From: a virus
Virus record (IMG/VR): IMGVR_UViG_3300027859_000009
Coordinates: 1 to 64,000 of that record
Reading direction: 5' to 3' (one strand)
DNA: 64,000 nucleotides
The notes below the pieces were generated by a model. It searched no databases and was not told where the DNA came from. It saw nothing but the letters and a program-made list of their open reading frames with translations. Each line of letters starts with the position of its first letter. The stretch's first letter is position 1. The translations under genes were made by a program, and so were the position numbers. Shown here piece by piece: positions 1,868-16,440 of the stretch.

Positions 1868-2233
1868 ATGAAACACTTTAAGCCCCCTACTAAAATAGAA
1901 ATAAAAGGCTCCTCCAGAGGAGGATATGGCTGTTTTGCGACAGAGCATATTAATAAAGGTGAAGTTGTAGAAATAAGCAAAGTTTTACCCATAATGAAAA
2001 ACACCGAATTTCAAATTCATGCTTATCCCGATACTAGAGTAAATAGAGGAAGGGTGCTTTGTCTAGGTTATGGGTCTTTATACAATCATTCGGATAATCC
2101 TAATTTAGAACAGGAAGAGTATGAAAATAATCTATTTAGATTTATAGCAATCAAAGATATTCTTAAAGGAGAAGAATTACTAATAAAATACGGCAATGCA
2201 TATTTTTCTAGTAGAGATATAGAAAAAAAATAA
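1868..2233 (+). CDS. SET-domain protein (lysine methyltransferase fold)
   Basis: GGYGCFATEHI.KGE, NHSDNPN and ELLIKYG motifs. Confidence 0.9.
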   Translation: MKHFKPPTKIEIKGSSRGGYGCFATEHINKGEVVEISKVLPIMKNTEFQIHAYPDTRVNRGRVLCLGYGSLYNHSDNPNLEQEEYENNLFRFIAIKDILKGEELLIKYGNAYFSSRDIEKK

Positions 2234-2257
2234 ACTTTTCACAATTTTAACATATAA
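2231..2257 (+). promoter_or_regulatory. Putative middle promoter (T/G)AAAC-N17-TATAA
   Basis: Exact 17-nt spacing. Same motif at 3601, 7654, 8080, 14440, 25126, 32481, 36934, 48203, 53895 and 62374. Confidence 0.7.
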
Positions 2258-2262
2258 TAATT

Positions 2263-2547
2263 ATGAAGAAAAAGAGTATATTAAAAGAAGCTGATGAAAT
2301 AATCAATAACCGATCTGAAGAAAAAGAGAGACAATATGGTCCATTTTCAGAAGGCATGGATAGAGCGGCTTCAATATTTAACGGAATGACCGGCCTAGAT
2401 GTTACAGGTAAAGAAATGTATATGGCACTTATAGCACTTAAATTTTCTAGAGAAAGCTACAATCACAAAAGAGATAACCTTCTTGATGCAGTTGCATACA
2501 TAGGAGCATTAGATAATTACATAGAAGAAGAAGATAATACATTATAA
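2263..2547 (+). CDS. Small all-alpha protein, DUF6378/nucleotide-pyrophosphohydrolase-like
   Basis: IL.EA..II...R..QYG...ALK.SR......DN.LD..AY pattern, common in phage nucleotide-modification loci. Confidence 0.6.
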   Translation: MKKKSILKEADEIINNRSEEKERQYGPFSEGMDRAASIFNGMTGLDVTGKEMYMALIALKFSRESYNHKRDNLLDAVAYIGALDNYIEEEDNTL

Positions 2548-2549
2548 TT

Positions 2550-3602
2550 ATGAAAACACCAGTAAAAGATATTTGGGAATTAGGAACATGGGCTAAAATT
2601 GCTATTGACGATGTTGTAACAACATTTAGTAATAAGAAGGCATCACATAAATCTGCATGGACATACATGCTAAAAAACCAGTTAAATCAAGCTGGTTTAG
2701 ACTGTGATATATTAACAAAAAACGATAATGTTCATGATTATGACGCGTGGTTTATCGTACTTCCAATGGAATTTCAAGGAAGTTATAATCTTTTTGGAGG
2801 AGCACAAGATGATACTGCAATGAGAATGCAAAGACTATTAGATTTTAAAGGTCCTATATTTTGTATTAATAGAGAAATGCCAGATATTGGTAAATTTGCA
2901 GAAAGTAGAATGAAGTCATGTTCTCAAATGTGGTCAGAACTTGATACTGAAAAACTTTCAGAAATTTCAAAAAATATAAAAACAATAGACCTTACATTAG
3001 AATCTGATACTTTTGTATTGGGAGATAGTCATTCAGTTTCAGCATATAAACCTGGAGCAAATATCTCTAGAAATGATGGGAAAACACTTTATGGAGTTCT
3101 CAAAGAAGGAATGCAAAATTATATTCCAGAAGGGACAAAGCATCTTATTTCATATTTTGGAAATATAGATATTAGACACCATCTTGGTAGACAAAAAGAT
3201 CCTCTATTATCAACAATAACCCTCGCTGAAGATTATATTAAACACCTTGAAACTTTGAATATTCCAAAAATTACAGTGGTTGCTTTATTACCAATTGAAT
3301 ATGAAGAGAGAAGAATTCCAAAAACAGGATGGTATAAAGGAACTCCATTTACTGGAACCCAAGAGGCAAGAACAAAAATCATGATAGAGTTTAACCAAAT
3401 TGTTAGAAGACTTTGTGAAGAAAAGGGCTTTGAATTTAAAGAATGGCCAAGACATTGGTATACAACGCATCCAAAAGAATTTGCAGACACTTATATGGAA
3501 AAACCTGGAAGCGTTCATCTTTCAAGACAATATTATCACTATGATTTTGATAGCGGAGAAGAGAATGAAGAACTTAAACAAAAAGTTTTTGGTTTATTTT
3601 GA
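2550..3602 (+). CDS. Hypothetical protein with C-terminal SGNH/GDSL-like domain
   Basis: FVLGDSHS (block I), YFGNIDIRHH (block III-like) and SVHLS (block V-like). Confidence 0.55.
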   Translation: MKTPVKDIWELGTWAKIAIDDVVTTFSNKKASHKSAWTYMLKNQLNQAGLDCDILTKNDNVHDYDAWFIVLPMEFQGSYNLFGGAQDDTAMRMQRLLDFKGPIFCINREMPDIGKFAESRMKSCSQMWSELDTEKLSEISKNIKTIDLTLESDTFVLGDSHSVSAYKPGANISRNDGKTLYGVLKEGMQNYIPEGTKHLISYFGNIDIRHHLGRQKDPLLSTITLAEDYIKHLETLNIPKITVVALLPIEYEERRIPKTGWYKGTPFTGTQEARTKIMIEFNQIVRRLCEEKGFEFKEWPRHWYTTHPKEFADTYMEKPGSVHLSRQYYHYDFDSGEENEELKQKVFGLF

Positions 3603-3650
3603 AACAAAATAAAAAAATTAAGTATAAAGTATAAATAATAAAAATAAAAT

Positions 3651-4898
3651 ATGAGCAAAAGCAAAAAAATTAAAGTAGGAATTATTGGCGTTGGAAATTG
3701 CGCTAAGTCCTTAGTAGAAGGAGTACAATACTACTCTGAAAAGCAAACTTCAGCAAATGGTATGATGCGTGAAGATATCGGAGGATATACGGCTGAAAAT
3801 ATCGAATTTGTGTGCGGTTTTGACATTGATGAAAGAAAAGTAAATACTCCTCTTGGAGAAGCTTTAAAACAAAGACCTAATAGCGCTTATGATATTGTTG
3901 AAAAAATAAATTCAAAAGCTCCAGTTTATGAAGGTCCAGTAATTGATGGTTACGCGCTTCTTATGGATGCATATCCTGAAAAAGACAGATTTTTAGTTTC
4001 AGAAAAACTTAGAAATAGCTCTGAAATGAATAGAGTTTCTTGGACTAAGAAAAAAGAAAACGAATGGAAAGAAAAAATAATTAATTTAATTAACAAACAT
4101 GAAGTTGAGGTATTAATTAACTATCTTCCAGTAGGTTCTCAAAAAGCAACAGAATTTTGGGCTGAAATTTGTTTAGCAACTGGTGTAAGTTTTGTAAATT
4201 GCATTCCAGTATTTATTGCGTCAGACCCATCATGGGAAAAAAGATTCATCGATGCTGGAATTCCACTAGTAGGAGATGATATGAGAAGTCAATTTGGAGC
4301 ATCTATTCTTTCTCAAATGTTACAAGAACTTGCCTTTGAAAGAGGACATGATGTCAAAGCACATATTCAAAGAAATGTTGGTGGTAATACTGACTTTTTA
4401 AATATGGAAGATAAAGGAAGACTACAATCTAAGAAAATATCTAAAGAAAATGTTATTAGAGCACAAAACGATATTAGAGGTATTTCTACTGAAAATAGCT
4501 TTTTACATGCAGGACCTTCTGAATATATTGCATACTATGGTGATAACAAAGTTGCTAACTTCAGATTGGAACTTGAAGGATTTGGAGGAGCTCCAGTTCT
4601 TTTAGATGCTCAACTATCTGTTCAAGATAGCCCAAATTCAGCAGGCGTAGTAATAGATGCTTTAAGATATGTGAGAGTTGCAAGAGAAATGGGAATTGTT
4701 GGAGCGTTAAGAGGCCCATCAGCATTTACTCAAAAAACTCCCCCAAAACAAATGATGTTTGCAGATGCAGTTCAAGAATGTGAGGCATTAGCAAATAGAA
4801 AACTAACACCAACTACGAAAAAACAAGTAGTAGCTAAAAAAGTTAGTGAAGTTAGAAGAGGTACTTCTACGGTTCAAGGAACTTTAAATAAAAACTAA
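3651..4898 (+). CDS. ino1: myo-inositol-1-phosphate (inositol-3-phosphate) synthase
   Basis: GVGNCAKSLVEG Rossmann motif; NYLPVGS, VNCIP, GDD.RSQ.GA, NVGGNTDFLN and DSPNSAG motifs. Confidence 0.95.
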   Translation: MSKSKKIKVGIIGVGNCAKSLVEGVQYYSEKQTSANGMMREDIGGYTAENIEFVCGFDIDERKVNTPLGEALKQRPNSAYDIVEKINSKAPVYEGPVIDGYALLMDAYPEKDRFLVSEKLRNSSEMNRVSWTKKKENEWKEKIINLINKHEVEVLINYLPVGSQKATEFWAEICLATGVSFVNCIPVFIASDPSWEKRFIDAGIPLVGDDMRSQFGASILSQMLQELAFERGHDVKAHIQRNVGGNTDFLNMEDKGRLQSKKISKENVIRAQNDIRGISTENSFLHAGPSEYIAYYGDNKVANFRLELEGFGGAPVLLDAQLSVQDSPNSAGVVIDALRYVRVAREMGIVGALRGPSAFTQKTPPKQMMFADAVQECEALANRKLTPTTKKQVVAKKVSEVRRGTSTVQGTLNKN

Positions 4899-4900
4899 AA

Positions 4901-5377
4901 ATGTACAAATTGAGATTTAATTTTTTAAGAAAGCTTTTTCAAAATGAAAAAGTTAGTAAAAGCAAAGAGGTTAAAAAAGCTAAAAAAGCTAAAAAAACCA
5001 AGAAAATTGAAAAAGTATACGGTTATGACTTCGATGGTGTAATTTCCATCGGAGTCCATCCGCGAAATTCAAACGATGTTATTATAACTGGAAGATGTAT
5101 AGATGAGGCAGAACATGTTTTATCTGTCTTAGATAAAAAAGGAATAACAAATAGTGTCTATTTTAACCCAATGACTTTAGCAGAACGTGGAAATCATACA
5201 CTTAAAGCTAGAAGATTTTCTGGAGCTCACAAAGCAAAAACAATTACCAAACTAAAAAATAAAAAAATATTAGTTACTAGGTTTTTTGAAGATGATACTA
5301 CTCAAATAAAATGCATATCTAAAGAACACCCAGAATTAGATATAGTACACATCAAATCTAATTTAGTAGAAAAATAA
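4901..5377 (+). CDS. HAD-superfamily phosphatase with basic N-terminal extension
   Basis: YDFDGV (motif I), ITGR (II), K (III), FFEDD (IV). Confidence 0.8.
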   Translation: MYKLRFNFLRKLFQNEKVSKSKEVKKAKKAKKTKKIEKVYGYDFDGVISIGVHPRNSNDVIITGRCIDEAEHVLSVLDKKGITNSVYFNPMTLAERGNHTLKARRFSGAHKAKTITKLKNKKILVTRFFEDDTTQIKCISKEHPELDIVHIKSNLVEK

Positions 5378-5381
5378 AATT

Positions 5382-6056
5382 ATGGCACTTACAACATTAC
5401 AAAAAAACTTAAGAAAAGATTATATGCAATACTTGAATGCTACTGAAGATGTAGATAAGAGTATGATAACCGACTGTATTAAACACTATCAAATACCGGA
5501 AGTAGATTATAGAGATAAAATATGTTTAGACCTTGGTGGTAATGTTGGCGGTTTTGCTAAATTAGCAGTAGATAGTGGTGCATATAGAGTATACACTGTT
5601 GAATGTGATTCTAGAAACTTTTTAAAAATGCAAACGAGTTTTCAAAATGAAGAAAAGGTAAATGTTATACATGCTGCAGTTTCAGGAAGTAGAGAAGATT
5701 CACTCGATATATACAAAGGACAGAGCAAATCAAATCACTGTTCTACTTCCATTATCAAAAGAACAGGAAGATATCAAAATTACGAAAATGTTAAAAATAT
5801 AAATATCAAAGACCTTTTACATGTTTGTAAACCAGATATTGTAAAAATAGACGTTGAAGGAGCAGAATATGAATTAATTGATGATGTTTTAAATTACCAC
5901 CCAGAGTTCTTATTTATAGAACTCCACATGGGAAAAATGAAAGAACTTGCACAGCCAACTTTAGATAGATTAGATGCGTTATATTCAAGCAGCAGTGTAG
6001 AGCCAGTTATTGTGTTTCAAAGCGTTGCAGGTTACGATTGTTGGTATAAAAAATAA
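5382..6056 (+). CDS. FkbM-family SAM-dependent methyltransferase
   Basis: LDLGGNVG, VE, HAAV and KIDVEGAEY motifs. Confidence 0.9.
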   Translation: MALTTLQKNLRKDYMQYLNATEDVDKSMITDCIKHYQIPEVDYRDKICLDLGGNVGGFAKLAVDSGAYRVYTVECDSRNFLKMQTSFQNEEKVNVIHAAVSGSREDSLDIYKGQSKSNHCSTSIIKRTGRYQNYENVKNINIKDLLHVCKPDIVKIDVEGAEYELIDDVLNYHPEFLFIELHMGKMKELAQPTLDRLDALYSSSSVEPVIVFQSVAGYDCWYKK

Positions 6057-6060
6057 AAAA

Positions 6061-7101
6061 ATGCTAGACCAAGTTAACATGGAAGTAGTCAAAGATGTTG
6101 GCTACTTTTTTAATAAAGTAAATGAGAGAGCACTTTGGCAGCTCGGTATAAATGAAACATATAGCAGCGGAGGAGACGCTGCTTTAGGGGAAACTGTAGA
6201 ATATTTTCATCCACAATTAACGCTTGACGACAGAATGCGATACATCATGGAGAATATCGTTTATTCTGGTCTTGATATCGACAACATTATTTGCAATACA
6301 ATTATATCTCACTTTTATGGAGGTAGAGGAATTCATCAGATATTAACTAAAGAAAGAGACCCTAAAAAAGCTCTTGTAGATTTTAAAAGACTTTTAGTAG
6401 ATAAAGACTATGAAAATACTATTAGAAAGAATTTAGAACATGCTGTAGAGTTAGGTTTACCAATCTATGGAACTACAGAATTAAGAACAAGTTTATTTGG
6501 AGCAGCAAATACTTATATTGCTGAATCTAGAAATCAAGAACGTGATGCACATAAAATCAACATTTTATTATGGGTAGCAAGTTTTATACCAAGAGGAATA
6601 ACATCGAGAATGTCTCAGGCACAATCACTTAAAGAGATGTATGATATTATCACAAATATTGAAGGTGTAGGACAGTATTACGGTTATCACTGCTCAACGT
6701 CTAACTCGGTAAACCCGGCCATTAATATAAACCACGATGAAAGATTTTGCGTACCAGGACCTGGTGCTAGACTTACTTTAGATATTATGTTTGGTGAAGG
6801 TTGTAAAATTCCTTATGGAGACAGAGTAATTTGGTTTAGAGAAAACTATAAAGACCTTATTGGCGAAATCTATCTTCATCCATCAACACATAATGTCATT
6901 GTCAATGGAAATCGAGTTCTTGCCGAAGAGCAAAATGATTTAAAGGTTTACGGATGTGAAGTTGGGTTATGTCAATACGGAGTTTACCATAGGCTTAGAA
7001 ATAACCCACATTTAATTAATAGACGAAAAGTTGCAAGAGCAGATGGGGCATTAATGGAATCTTTTTTCAATAATAATTATAAACAACAAACGCTTTTTTA
7101 G
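6061..7101 (+). CDS. aGPT-PPlase / amino-acid:DNA-transferase-like (HhH) DNA hypermodification protein
   Basis: HhH-like IEGVGQYYGY, PGPGA..TL and EVGLCQY..Y motifs. True start is probably ATG 6061, not 6010. Confidence 0.7.
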   Translation: MLDQVNMEVVKDVGYFFNKVNERALWQLGINETYSSGGDAALGETVEYFHPQLTLDDRMRYIMENIVYSGLDIDNIICNTIISHFYGGRGIHQILTKERDPKKALVDFKRLLVDKDYENTIRKNLEHAVELGLPIYGTTELRTSLFGAANTYIAESRNQERDAHKINILLWVASFIPRGITSRMSQAQSLKEMYDIITNIEGVGQYYGYHCSTSNSVNPAININHDERFCVPGPGARLTLDIMFGEGCKIPYGDRVIWFRENYKDLIGEIYLHPSTHNVIVNGNRVLAEEQNDLKVYGCEVGLCQYGVYHRLRNNPHLINRRKVARADGALMESFFNNNYKQQTLF

Positions 7102-7126: not shown

Positions 7127-7624
7127 ATGAATCATACTAAACTGTTTGAACAATTTGTTAATGAGAACATTAAAAATATGACCATCGGTACACCTGCTAC
7201 AAATTCAGCTCAAAGGGAAACTGTTAAATTTGAATTATGGGCTTTAAAAGAAGGTCTTAAAAACACATACGGTAAAGATTTTTCTAAAGCTAAACAAACA
7301 AATCCTAAAAGCGCAAAAGGAAAGTTAGCAATATATGCGGTAACTGAAGAAAAAGAAAACCCATATACAACAAACGATAATTTTAAAACAATTGCAGCAA
7401 ATACAATAATTGCAGTATGCGACGGTAAAAAGCCTCTATATTTTCATAGAGAACCAATGTTTGGACCTCCTTATGAGGGCGAAATCACTCTAACACCAGA
7501 AAGAAGAACAAATCACGACAACCTTAATTTTGGTTATCACGACCATGAAGGTGGAAAATACGCAACAGGTATTAAGAACCTTAAAAGAATTATAGAATTA
7601 GCAGACGTAGCATATACTTTTTAA
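7127..7624 (+). CDS. Putative internal head protein
   Basis: GATATATA at 7101; N-terminus MNHTKLFEQFVNE resembles the T4 capsid-targeting sequence. Confidence 0.6.
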   Translation: MNHTKLFEQFVNENIKNMTIGTPATNSAQRETVKFELWALKEGLKNTYGKDFSKAKQTNPKSAKGKLAIYAVTEEKENPYTTNDNFKTIAANTIIAVCDGKKPLYFHREPMFGPPYEGEITLTPERRTNHDNLNFGYHDHEGGKYATGIKNLKRIIELADVAYTF

Positions 7625-7686: not shown

Positions 7687-8094
7687 ATGGAAAATTCAAC
7701 ACCAAAACCAGACCATATTGTATTTAATGAGGAAACTGGAGAATATGATGCTAATACAAAAGCATATCCAACAACAGCAAGTGCTCCTTCATTTTCACCA
7801 GTTATTTTTGATAATCATGAAAGTGTTAAAGCTTCTAAATATTTTCAGACAAAATTTAATGAAATCAAAAATGAGTATTTTCAACTTATTAATCATTGGG
7901 AGAATACTAAAAGGGTTTATGATGCAGATTGTAATTTTAAACCAATAACTGGAGAAATATATCACCTTTACACAAAAGATACTGGAGACTTTTTAAGCAT
8001 TATAGAACCTTCTCAATGGAATCAAAAATATGTTGGAAGTTTTAAATTAACAACTGATGGAAAATGGGAGTCCGTAAAGGAAACAAACGACTAG
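7687..8094 (+). CDS. DUF2452-like protein
   Basis: A..NFKP..GEIYHLY....FLSII.P..W pattern. Confidence 0.6.
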   Translation: MENSTPKPDHIVFNEETGEYDANTKAYPTTASAPSFSPVIFDNHESVKASKYFQTKFNEIKNEYFQLINHWENTKRVYDADCNFKPITGEIYHLYTKDTGDFLSIIEPSQWNQKYVGSFKLTTDGKWESVKETND

Positions 8095-8125: not shown

Positions 8126-8593
8126 ATGGCAAACATTGATAACGAATGTAAAGATTTAGAAGTAAAAGACTTCTATGAAGAATCAACAACACACTTAGCA
8201 GACATTATGGAAAACCAAAAGAAAATGCAAGAGCAGACTTACGGTTTTAATTTCGAAGATATGACAATTAGAGAAATAATGGACTTTTGGCATTGCAACA
8301 CACATGCAGTTGTAGATGAAATTCACGAAATGACAGATGCTCTTGGGGGTATTAAAGATGGCTCTGGAAACGCAGTGTGGAAATATTGGAAAAAAGACTT
8401 TCCAAAATATGATAAATTAAAAATTTCTGATATGAGTGAAGATGATAAAAAAGAACTTTATATGGAGTGGGTAGATATTCTACACTTTTTTATTAATTAT
8501 GCTGCATCTATAGGACTTGACGCAAAAACAGCATATAATTATTACTTTGCAAAAGCAGAAGAAAATGTAAATCGTCAAAAAAGAGGATATTAG
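8126..8593 (+). CDS. T4 gp56-like dCTP/dUTP pyrophosphatase (all-alpha NTP-PPase)
   Basis: DEIHE..DALGG, WKYWK, EWVDILHFFIN and K..EN..RQ..GY motifs. Confidence 0.8.
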   Translation: MANIDNECKDLEVKDFYEESTTHLADIMENQKKMQEQTYGFNFEDMTIREIMDFWHCNTHAVVDEIHEMTDALGGIKDGSGNAVWKYWKKDFPKYDKLKISDMSEDDKKELYMEWVDILHFFINYAASIGLDAKTAYNYYFAKAEENVNRQKRGY

Positions 8594-8629: not shown

Positions 8630-10036
8630 ATGATATTAGATATTGAGCAAAAAGAAAAAGAAGTAATAATAAGCTACTACGACAAAGAAGGAAAAGTAAG
8701 CTTTAAAAGATATCCAATTGATAAATTTGAAAATTGGGTTGTAACCGATGAAAAAGATAAATATAAACACCCACAACTAAAAAATTGGAATGGAAAGCCA
8801 ATTAAAAAAATTACTTCAAAAAGAGGATTTAATAAATTTAGTTTAGTATATTTCATTGAAAGTTTACCTGAAAAAGACCAAAAAGAGCTTTTTGAATCTA
8901 ACAGCCCTAAAACATATTTTATAGATATTGAAACAGAAATAGTAGACGGTTTTCCAAAAGCAGAAGACGCTAAAACTAGAATACTTAACTTTTCAATTAT
9001 AACGCCTGATAAAAAAGCAATAGTATTAGGCATTAAAGAGTTAGATATGAAAGGTCTTGAAAAAGACACTAATGAATATTTTAAATCTTTAGATGATGAT
9101 TGGTCCATATCATATTATAAGTTCGATAATGAGTATGATATGGTCTATAATTTTATTCATAAATTCATGCCTAAGTTTCCAATGATGACCGGATGGAACT
9201 TTATTAATTATGATTGGAAGTATATTGTAAATAGATGTAAAAGACTTCAAATAGATATTAGCGAAATGTCAGTTACTGGAAAAGTAGACAAAGTAGATGG
9301 TAGACCGTTACACATGGGAATTCTCGATTACATGCAATTATATGATAAGTATGATAAGTCTGTAAAAGTAAGAGAATCTAATTCTCTTGATTTTGTTTCA
9401 GGACAGATTGTAGGTCTTAAAAAGATTAAATACAATGGAGGATTACAAGAACTGTACGAAAACGATTATAAAAAATATGTTTACTACAATATAGTAGATT
9501 CTATTTTGGTATACTATATAGACCAAAAAATAAAGTCAATGGACGTTCTTTTAACATTAGCAAATATTACAAAAATGCCTCTGTATAAAGCAGCTAGCCC
9601 TGTTGCAATGACTGAAGCATTAATGGCTAGAAAATTAATGGAACAAAATAAAAGAATTGGAACAGAAAGAAAAGAAGATGTTGCAAAAGATGGAAAGTAC
9701 ACTGGTGCATTTGTTAAAGAGCCAATTTCAGGTTTTTATTCTGGTGTAAGTGCGTTTGACTTTGCATCTCTATATCCTTCAATTATGCGACAATTTAATA
9801 TTTCACCAGATTCATATATTGAACAAATTCCAAAAGAAGATATTGCAGAACGCAGGAAAGATAGTAATGTTATTGTATGTGAAAATGGAGTAGTTTACAA
9901 AAATAATGAATCAGTATTAAAACAAATTCAAAGTGATTTATACGCTCAAAGAAAAGAGTATAAAGCTATAGCTTATGATTATTTTGAAAAAGCAGCAATG
10001 GTTCAAAAAAAAATTAATTTAAAAAAGAACCCATAA
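8630..10036 (+). CDS. DNA polymerase B, N-terminal subunit (3'-5' exonuclease plus palm motif A)
   Basis: FIDIET, GWN...YD, YNIVD and DFASLYPS motifs. Ends in the fingers helix (LY.QRKEYK); lacks motifs B and C. Confidence 0.9.
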   Translation: MILDIEQKEKEVIISYYDKEGKVSFKRYPIDKFENWVVTDEKDKYKHPQLKNWNGKPIKKITSKRGFNKFSLVYFIESLPEKDQKELFESNSPKTYFIDIETEIVDGFPKAEDAKTRILNFSIITPDKKAIVLGIKELDMKGLEKDTNEYFKSLDDDWSISYYKFDNEYDMVYNFIHKFMPKFPMMTGWNFINYDWKYIVNRCKRLQIDISEMSVTGKVDKVDGRPLHMGILDYMQLYDKYDKSVKVRESNSLDFVSGQIVGLKKIKYNGGLQELYENDYKKYVYYNIVDSILVYYIDQKIKSMDVLLTLANITKMPLYKAASPVAMTEALMARKLMEQNKRIGTERKEDVAKDGKYTGAFVKEPISGFYSGVSAFDFASLYPSIMRQFNISPDSYIEQIPKEDIAERRKDSNVIVCENGVVYKNNESVLKQIQSDLYAQRKEYKAIAYDYFEKAAMVQKKINLKKNP

Positions 10037-15234: not shown

Positions 15235-16440
15235 ATGAAAGAAGTAATTGAAGAGGTAGATTACGACAGCATGTCTGTCGAAGAGTTAGAGCAGTTACAA
15301 AAAGAATACATAGTACTTGCTAATAAATATACTGCGTATGAACAGTCTGTTAAATTATCTCTTAATAGTATTTATGGTGCATTTGGTAATAAGTGGTTTC
15401 ACTTCTTTGATATACAAATGGCCGAATCAATTACTCTTCAAGGCCAAGATGCAATCCTTTACTCCGAAAGTATTTTAAATAAGTACTTTACGGAGTTTTG
15501 GCATAAAGATGAAAAATTACACGAAAGGTTAGGTGTAAAAGTAAAAAATAAACTCATTAAACCTGCTGTAATTTATATAGATACAGATTCTAATTATGTA
15601 CAGTTCGGTGAAATGTATGAATCTATTGAATGGTTAGATGAATCTAAAAAATTAGACGTAACAACTTTTACTTTAGAGGTTTACAATCTTAGAATTAAAG
15701 ATTATATTTCGATGGCTATGAAAAAATATGCTAAAGATAGAAATACTGATAACTTCTTAATGTTTGAATTAGAGTCAGTGGCATATTCTGGTATATTTAT
15801 GACTAAGAAAAAATACATACAAGATATATCATGGGACGATAAACTTCCTGTAAATGAAAGACACAATTCTCTTAAAAAAGTAAAAACAGTAGGATACGAT
15901 ACCATTCAAAGTTCGACACCTTTATTTGCAAGAAAGAAATTAACCGAAGCGTTAACTTTATTATTTAGCAAAGGAGTTACACCTGGTCCAAATGAATTGC
16001 AGGAAATTGTTTCTTTCATGAAAGAATGTAAGAAAGAATTTAAGTTAGTAGACTTAGACGATATTTGTTTCAATCGAAAAACAAATAATATTCACAAGTA
16101 TATAATTGATGATAATAAAGAATTTCAAATAGGTCTTAAATGTCCTCCTAACGTAAAAGCGGCAGGTTTTTATAATTATTTAATGAATAACAATTCAAAA
16201 TATAAAAACAAATATAAAATGATATCAAATGGTGAAAAGCTTAGAATATACAATACGAAGCACACTATATGTGATACATTTGCGTATTTACCAGGTGAAC
16301 ACCCTTATGAAATAGCTCCGGAAATTGATTACGATACACAATTCGAAAAGTGTATGATTGACCCTATAAATAGAGTTTTAAGAGCAACTGGTTTACAAGA
16401 ATTAGATACAAATTTAATTTACGCATCGGCTTTATTTTAG
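15235..16440 (+). CDS. DNA polymerase B, C-terminal subunit (motifs B and C, thumb)
   Basis: KLSLNSIYGAFGN, T..GQ, YIDTDS, KKKY and C-terminal clamp-binding-like ..ALF. Confidence 0.9.
   Translation: MKEVIEEVDYDSMSVEELEQLQKEYIVLANKYTAYEQSVKLSLNSIYGAFGNKWFHFFDIQMAESITLQGQDAILYSESILNKYFTEFWHKDEKLHERLGVKVKNKLIKPAVIYIDTDSNYVQFGEMYESIEWLDESKKLDVTTFTLEVYNLRIKDYISMAMKKYAKDRNTDNFLMFELESVAYSGIFMTKKKYIQDISWDDKLPVNERHNSLKKVKTVGYDTIQSSTPLFARKKLTEALTLLFSKGVTPGPNELQEIVSFMKECKKEFKLVDLDDICFNRKTNNIHKYIIDDNKEFQIGLKCPPNVKAAGFYNYLMNNNSKYKNKYKMISNGEKLRIYNTKHTICDTFAYLPGEHPYEIAPEIDYDTQFEKCMIDPINRVLRATGLQELDTNLIYASALF

Follow-up and report, generated by a model that had tools for sequence, protein, structure and literature searches.

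The first 64 kb of the 80.5-kb viral record IMGVR_UViG_3300027859_000009 from IMG/VR (this whole stretch, as analyzed, is called the window) contain a six-gene cassette that very probably serves a T4-like phage for the hypermodification of its DNA. The cassette encodes a DUF6378 protein, a protein with an SGNH/GDSL-fold domain (P0002), an enzyme of the myo-inositol-1(3)-phosphate synthase family, a small phosphatase of the haloacid dehalogenase (HAD) type, an FkbM-family methyltransferase and a helix-hairpin-helix (HhH) protein (P0003). On balance we favor the view that a cyclitol ends up on a DNA base, the best reading being a cyclitol-decorated 5-hydroxymethylcytosine (hmC). An earlier interpretation of the same DNA (the original prediction) had proposed that inositol or its phosphate is made and attached to a modified pyrimidine. 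The record was assigned to a T4-like phage because it carries genes for a gp20 portal protein, a gp23 capsid protein, a clamp loader, a UvsX-like recombinase, a ribonucleotide reductase and a split B-family DNA polymerase; the G+C content of the window is about 31%.

Linkage of these genes was followed from two sides. With P0003 as the anchor we obtained 80 viral loci having 40-95% identity to P0003, and counted the 44 that had enough flanking DNA. P0002 and the synthase were encoded in 44/44 of these loci, the phosphatase in 43/44, FkbM in 28/44 and the DUF6378 protein in 27/44, in 10 different gene orders. With the synthase as the anchor, using the Cr30 protein as the first query to sample other lineages, 80 loci were kept of at least 322 viral stretches encoding a relative; 47 of them had a cassette of the present kind, 21 had the synthase beside a PF18724-like transferase, 6 had it beside FolE/QueC/QueE genes, 2 had only a kinase or deoxyuridine monophosphate (dUMP) hydroxymethylase as such a neighbor, and 4 had none. 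When at least 3 kb was available on both sides of the synthase gene, a DNA-modification neighbor was present in 38/39 loci, being this kind of cassette in 20, an amino-acid:DNA transferase in 13, and 7-deazaguanine genes in 5. The synteny of synthase, phosphatase and transferase genes suggested earlier for related phages is thus borne out whichever gene is taken as the anchor. Three cultured phages illustrate the arrangements: in Cr30 the sole PF18724 gene is found two genes upstream of the synthase gene, in RP13 the sole HMUD2 kinase gene lies 3 kb downstream of it, and in Mendera the synthase and phosphatase genes lie among FolE, QueC-like and QueE-like genes. The Cr30 protein encoded between transferase and synthase (AGS81007; L002, 4907-5833) showed a weak match, under the cut-off, to the TET-associated glycosyltransferase family (PF20691, E 8.5e-4). 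No homologue of the TAGT-like glucosyltransferase gene of Cr30 turned up in the loci compared.

Inositol-phosphate synthases convert glucose-6-phosphate to inositol phosphate, and HAD enzymes take off phosphate. The synthase gene (3651-4898, + strand, 415 residues), which had been read as an intact myo-inositol-1-phosphate synthase gene, indeed encodes a protein of that family: it matched PF01658 at 80.8 bits and Mycobacterium tuberculosis Ino1 (1gr0) at E 1.8e-79 and 271 bits, and its motifs GVGNC, LPVGS, GDDxxSQ, NVGGNxDFLNM, SKxISK and DSPNSAG, which include the NAD-binding and catalytic ones, aligned with those of 1gr0. The score against TIGR03450 was 292.5 bits, below the equivalog cut-off of 638, and judged by sequence the enzyme is a family member and not a proven equivalog. 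Its second-best solved relative was 6k96, a five-membered cyclitol-phosphate synthase (E 4.7e-45, 158 bits). The adjoining gene (4901-5377, + strand, 158 residues) specifies a minimal HAD-type protein, presumably an inositol-phosphate phosphatase. It matched no Pfam, NCBIfam or PHROG profile; however, HAD motifs I-IV (DFDGV, IITGR, SGAHK and FEDD) were kept in eight sequences from four phage lineages, in agreement with its first identification, and a small HAD gene follows the synthase gene in Mendera, Cr30, RP13 and distant loci. Such a phosphatase, dedicated to the pathway, favors a free cyclitol as the product. Two further features of the phosphatase were noted: a lysine-rich N-terminal tail of about 38 residues (4901-5020) without counterpart in the Mendera, Cr30 and RP13 homologues, and an identity of 58-71% even in the closest relatives, compared to 91-95% for the neighboring genes.

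P0003 (6061-7101, + strand, ATG at 6061, 346 residues) is predicted to be a DNA-base-directed transferase. It matched PF18723 (HMUDK_hel, the old aGPT-Pplase clade 1) at 52.6 bits, with a cut-off of 25 and 228 of 281 profile positions covered. The GVGxYY, PGPGA and E-x3-C-Q-Y motifs of P0003 were invariant among 54 homologues, as were, individually, Glu300, Cys304 and Gln305. When an AlphaFold model built from the alignment of these homologues (predicted local distance difference test score, pLDDT, 92) was compared with solved structures, the best match was the transferase PUGT (8z2n_B; VIA Z 11.3, root-mean-square deviation [rmsd] 3.7, 225/288 residues), which Foldseek also ranked first (probability 0.97, E 0.07). 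All other matches were at or below Z 9.4, among them a queuine salvage enzyme (about Z 9) and HhH glycosylases (about Z 7). In a four-sequence alignment Glu300 and Cys304 of P0003 shared columns with Glu243 and Cys247 of PUGT, residues that serve in metal coordination and in clamping of the flipped base and whose mutation kills activity (PMC11472151, PMC8989533). The family PF18723, the PUGT fold and the shared Glu-x3-Cys also argue against an ordinary glycosylase at 6061, the outcome that would have undone the original prediction.

The transferases themselves fall in PF18724, to which PUGT (PaMx11 gp46) scored 97 bits and Cr30 AGS81008 scored 179 bits. We placed P0003 in aGPT-Pplase clade 1 because PaMx11 gp50, whose gene adjoins that of the 5-hydroxymethyldeoxyuridine (5-hmdU) DNA kinase, shares PF18723 (141 bits) while the characterized glycine:DNA transferase gp46 falls in PF18724. 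Comparison of the P0003 profile (A1) with gp50 by hhalign gave a short match in the HhH region (E 0.0015 over 83 columns). Because profile comparison misses the relationship to the transferases, the argument for homology is one from fold and motif, not from sequence statistics. The identification of P0003 as an aGPT-PPlase-like DNA transferase therefore held in part: the clade, the fold and the Glu/Cys pair agreed with it, as did the structural check, whereas P0003 is not in the characterized family PF18724 and profile comparison gave no link to that family.

Variants of P0003 were found in several settings. Some homologues (P0059, P0063, P0067, P0070, P0072, P0074, P0080 and P0082; 60-66% identity, 520-560 residues) extend C-terminally by 180-200 residues that match no Pfam family. 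In L157-L175 (for example, L164 at 10573) the protein in the P0003 slot was just 26-29% identical, compared to 45-82% for its neighbors, as if the HhH gene had been exchanged and the rest of the cassette kept. Crocinitomix algicola strain 0182 (contig17; L176, 7965-8996) has a lone P0003 homologue of 54% identity, without synthase, phosphatase or P0002, next to a tyrosine integrase gene and a Schlafen/AlbA_2 plus HATPase_c_4 gene on a chromosomal island; the gene may have been captured into an island of the mobile or defense type.

P0002 (2550-3602, + strand, 350 residues) had no Pfam match; its AlphaFold model (pLDDT 91) and conserved motifs indicate an N-terminal alpha/beta domain and a C-terminal SGNH/GDSL-fold domain. 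Residues 151-339 were recognized as the latter by Foldseek (probability 1.0, E 4.5e-5) and by VIA (Z 12.5, rmsd 3.1, 153 residues aligned), and over 40 SGNH chains scored Z 9.5-12.7. Invariant blocks were GDSHS (158-162), GNID (204-207) and His323, which lies in S-x-H instead of DxxH. For the N-terminal 145 residues there was no usable match in the protein atlas. Prediction of a complex between P0002 and P0003 gave a score of 0.00, an answer neither way. Natural fusions were informative. ORF233c of Aeromonas phage 31 is a single 795-residue protein with P0002-like and P0003-like halves, and among 21 longer relatives of P0002 the metagenomic protein P0246 joins P0002 to P0003, and P0245 and P0253 join FkbM, P0003 and P0002; the fusions come in two domain orders. 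We regard P0002 as the obligate partner of P0003 because the two are naturally fused. These fusions are strong evidence that P0002, P0003 and FkbM act together and that P0002 and P0003 jointly make up a single DNA-directed enzyme. P0002 is accordingly not taken for a late tailoring acylase; acylation as a late step had been raised as possible in the original prediction.

The methyltransferase, proposed from the outset to be of the FkbM family, is encoded at 5382-6056 (+ strand, 224 residues) and passed both profile cut-offs for this S-adenosylmethionine-dependent family (PF05050, 36.4 bits with a cut-off of 22.7; TIGR01444, 57.9 bits with a cut-off of 37.7). As a pathway step it would be an optional one, since the gene occurs in 28/44 loci, a qualification to its earlier placement in the pathway. 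The enzyme probably acts at the DNA-bound stage and not on free inositol because it is fused to P0003 and P0002. In Aeromonas phage 31 the gene directly upstream of the fused P0002-P0003 gene (ORF234c; L041, 5366-6889) encodes a sodium:solute symporter (PF00474) that is YidK/SGLT-like, its nearest NCBIfam model being PRK10484 (YidK-like), below the cut-off. This symporter may import a co-substrate where the synthase is missing.

As the target base, hmC is probably to be preferred to 5-hydroxymethyluracil (hmU). The original prediction had left the modified pyrimidine as either, and had noted that the hydroxymethylase and kinase steps were not in the window. We found no thymidylate-synthase homologue (PF00303) in the whole of the 80.5-kb record, which is 28% complete by the CheckV estimate, and no Walker A/P-loop motif or kinase family match in any of the eight proteins encoded between 2263 and 8094. 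The longer relatives G001 and G002 (139 and 149 kb) carry a divergent thymidylate-synthase homologue, and in many distant loci a gene for a deoxycytidine monophosphate (dCMP) hydroxymethylase of the T4 gp42 type directly adjoins the cassette. A frequent order was hydroxymethylase, dCMP deaminase, synthase, phosphatase, P0003, P0002 and a C5-methyltransferase-like gene. Several of the cassette-linked homologues were 56-62% identical to T4 gp42, and in Escherichia coli ThyA numbering such homologues have L143D, keep Asp169 and have N177D. This is the signature of 5-hydroxymethyl-dCMP synthases; dUMP hydroxymethylases have Asn177 and 5-hydroxy-dCMP synthases have D169N (PMC13326640). An hmU target was accordingly ranked low, the specificity position being Asp and not Asn, and a 5-hydroxycytosine route was rejected on the basis of the retained Asp169.

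Within the window itself, the gene at 8126-8593 (+ strand), located as predicted just ahead of the B-family polymerase gene that starts at 8630, encodes a homologue of the T4 gp56 dCTPase/dUTPase (phrog_173; 31-38% identity to annotated gp56 dCTPases by tblastn, E 1e-15 to 1e-17), and a gp56 homologue adjoins P0003 in most close relatives. The presence of this dCTPase homologue supports replacement of deoxycytidine in the phage DNA; together with the gp42-type genes that relatives place beside the cassette, it makes hmC the probable target. In the Aeromonas phages with the fused protein (44RR, 31 and 25), genes 42 and 56 are present and a glucosyltransferase is absent, and the decoration of their DNA was left as a question in 2010 (PMC2993671). 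A gene resembling those for C5 cytosine DNA methyltransferases (PF00145, 72 bits) lies directly 3' of P0002 in distant relatives (L092, 10194-11405; also L099, L088, L109, L121, L149, L166, L180 and L181). It is not in the cassette of the window, and is an odd gene for phages expected to be without unmodified cytosine.

In amino-acid:DNA transferases, a Cys adds to C6 of the base, the leaving group on C5 is expelled and a nucleophile adds to the exocyclic methylene; with M6 gp51 this methylene was revealed by trapping with borohydride or thiol. For the cassette we tentatively propose a kinase-free variant of this scheme. The phage would exchange C for hmC, and the synthase and phosphatase would convert glucose-6-phosphate to free myo-inositol or a close cyclitol. 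P0003, the PF18723 protein, would be the transferase: it would flip hmC out of the DNA, Cys304 would attack C6, and Glu300 would aid departure of the C5 substituent, as in the amino-acid:DNA transferases. The exocyclic methylene would then take a cyclitol hydroxyl, giving an ether-linked inosityl-oxymethylcytosine, which FkbM, where present, would O-methylate on the DNA. P0002 would stand where the thymidine pathways have a P-loop kinase. Most likely it would turn the hydroxymethyl group into a leaving group by acylation, or alternatively it would remove such an ester; this assignment of a role to the SGNH domain is guesswork. The synthase-phosphatase pair, also found beside genes for thymine and 7-deazaguanine hypermodification, would be a portable supply of donor for all three. 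There is precedent for a hydroxyl nucleophile in ViI gp247, which uses the serine side chain (PMC8989533). A literature search turned up no report of an inositol-bearing DNA base, the inositol hits concerning names of glycosyltransferase folds, in accord with the earlier statement that no such phage base had been described.

A number of points weigh against this scheme, and its weakest parts are the role of P0002, the activity of clade 1 and the chemistry. The hydroxymethylase is not in the 80.5-kb fragment and is deduced from relatives, and the P-loop scan of the cassette found no activating kinase. Acyl activation is without precedent on DNA. The structural match of P0003 to PUGT reached just E 0.07 with Foldseek, and its Z of 11.3 is under the tool's caution mark for helical folds, which can reach high structure scores by chance. 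Thr244, a metal-binding residue of PUGT, is replaced in P0003 by an invariant Val301; P0003 gave no PF18724 match even at E 10; and hhalign found no significant homology between A1 and PUGT and a probability of 1% between A1 and a 17-sequence transferase profile (A4), the aligned part being the HhH hairpin region. M6 gp55, a member of clade 1, could be omitted in vitro, and none of the clade has a demonstrated transferase activity (PMC8989533). The synthase family also yields other cyclitol phosphates, as 6k96 illustrates. P0002-P0003 pairs occur without a synthase in Aeromonas phages and a lone P0003 homologue in the Crocinitomix island; the chemistry of the pair thus does not always need inositol. 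In addition, no cassette of this kind was present in any cultured phage in the collection searched.

A first alternative is that P0002, P0003 and FkbM modify hmC without inositol, for example by acylation or as a methyl ether, with the synthase and phosphatase being auxiliary metabolic genes (for an osmolyte, a lipid head group or a cofactor) that share a block of early genes. Besides the Aeromonas fusion and the Crocinitomix gene, the composition of the fusions speaks for it, as they combine FkbM, P0003 and P0002 and never include the synthase or phosphatase. We nevertheless consider it unlikely, given that both of those genes stay with P0003 at nearly every well-flanked locus, whichever of the 10 gene orders is present and even where identity falls to 40%. 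The pair also accompanies DNA-modification genes of two further, unrelated kinds, and just 1 of the 39 well-flanked viral synthase loci has no such neighbor.

An alternative that keeps the principle and changes the adduct or the target, namely a non-myo cyclitol, an inositol phosphate joined through its phosphate, hmU, or a nucleotide pool outside DNA, seems decidedly improbable. While the relationship to 6k96, the sub-threshold TIGR03450 score and the missing hydroxymethylase would all fit it, the synthase resembles true Ino1 much more closely (271 compared to 158 bits), the dedicated phosphatase favors a free cyclitol, and the cytosine-specific Asp of the adjacent thymidylate-synthase homologues and the gp56 dCTPase of the window point to hmC. 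Most improbable by far is that P0003 is an ordinary HhH DNA glycosylase for repair or anti-restriction and P0002 an unrelated esterase. The Z values of 7-9 obtained with HhH glycosylases and the queuine salvage enzyme are what such an explanation can draw on, and it is countered by the PF18723 match, by PUGT as the top structural hit, by the invariant Glu-x3-Cys shared with the transferases and by the fusion of P0003 to P0002 and FkbM. Cyclitol-decorated hmC is retained as the best reading.

The thymidine hypermodification systems of PaMx11 (gp49/gp46), M6 (gp54/gp51) and ViI (gp67/gp243/gp247) each consist of a 5-hmdU DNA kinase and an amino-acid:DNA transferase (PMC8989533, PMC11472151). The cassette as we read it resembles them in post-replicative decoration of a 5-hydroxymethylpyrimidine, in an HhH enzyme with Glu-x3-Cys and in its closeness to nucleotide-pool genes. 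It differs in that P0003 is in PF18723 and not PF18724, has Val for the metal-binding Thr, and is accompanied by an SGNH-fold partner instead of a P-loop kinase; furthermore, the base is probably hmC and not hmU, and the presumed donor is a phage-made cyclitol and not a host amino acid or polyamine. PaMx11 gp50 and M6 gp55 share PF18723 with P0003, and gp50 also has the Glu-x3-Cys, but they adjoin or are fused to the P-loop kinase and have low identity to P0003. With the T4 hmC pathway (gp42, gp56 and the alpha- and beta-glucosyltransferases) the cassette has in common the gp56 homologue of the window, the gp42-type genes of relatives and decoration after replication; unlike in T4, an HhH plus SGNH pair would decorate, and the donor would be a free cyclitol and not UDP-glucose. 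The Aeromonas phage 31 ORF233c fusion, to which stretches of 44RR2.8t and further T4-like phages of Aeromonas correspond, has the P0002-like and P0003-like parts at 21-37% identity, but no synthase, phosphatase or FkbM, and a sodium:solute symporter as its neighbor. In RB69 and DLP3, which make arabinosyl-5-hydroxycytosine, a thymidylate-synthase homologue of a T4-like phage likewise sets a cytosine hydroxyl for decoration; there, however, the synthases have D169N and produce 5-hydroxy-dCMP, and glycosyltransferases decorate (PMC13326640), whereas the cassette-linked homologues keep Asp169.

The cassette would thus represent post-replicative decoration of a hydroxymethylpyrimidine by the aGPT-Pplase superfamily, and would be new in its class of donor, in its partner enzyme and probably in its target base. 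If this is correct, cyclitols would join sugars, amino acids and polyamines as decorations of phage DNA, the PF18723 family would gain its first function, and there would be a second route for activating hydroxymethylpyrimidine in DNA. It may also account for the finishing of DNA in those T4-like phages, such as Aeromonas 44RR, 31 and 25, in which genes 42 and 56 occur without a glucosyltransferase gene (PMC2993671). Bases of this type are relevant to restriction evasion, to work in which environmental phage DNA is sequenced or cloned, and to enzyme tools for hmC labeling.

The layout of the cassette was as first described: the six genes lie on the + strand within 2263-7101, tightly packed with gaps of 0-50 bases, and the record begins 2 kb upstream of them. 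The promoter-like motif AAAC-N17-TATAA, which had been reported ahead of two of the genes, proved real, with 16 copies in the window compared to 3.3 expected (16 was reached in 0 of 100 shuffles), 15 of them on the + strand; the copies ahead of the DUF6378 gene (2232-2257, + strand) and the synthase gene (3602-3627, + strand) are 1 base off the starts of 2231 and 3601 given at that time. The DUF6378 gene (2263-2547, + strand, 94 residues; PF19905, 44.6 bits) opens the cassette in this clade, and lies upstream of P0002 in the 27 well-flanked P0003 loci that have it. A megablast search of the cassette against cultured phages gave no match, and sequence searches of the Protein Data Bank with P0003, its profile A1, P0002, the gp56-like protein, DUF6378 and FkbM were uninformative.

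Directly 5' of the cassette, a gene at 1868-2233 encodes a SET-domain protein (PF00856, 52.6 bits) with just 59% identity in close relatives; lysine methyltransferase domains are unusual in phages. Two small genes (7127-7624 and 7687-8094) occupy the interval between P0003 and the dCTPase gene, one encoding a DUF2452 protein and the other a protein without assigned function. They keep that position just in the closest relatives (L005-L007), and elsewhere DUF2452 is flanked by DUF6378 and P0002. Two genes about 5 kb apart (8630-10036 and 15235-16440) encode the B-family DNA polymerase, and between them are the genes for the small and large subunits of ribonucleotide reductase and two open reading frames without assigned function.

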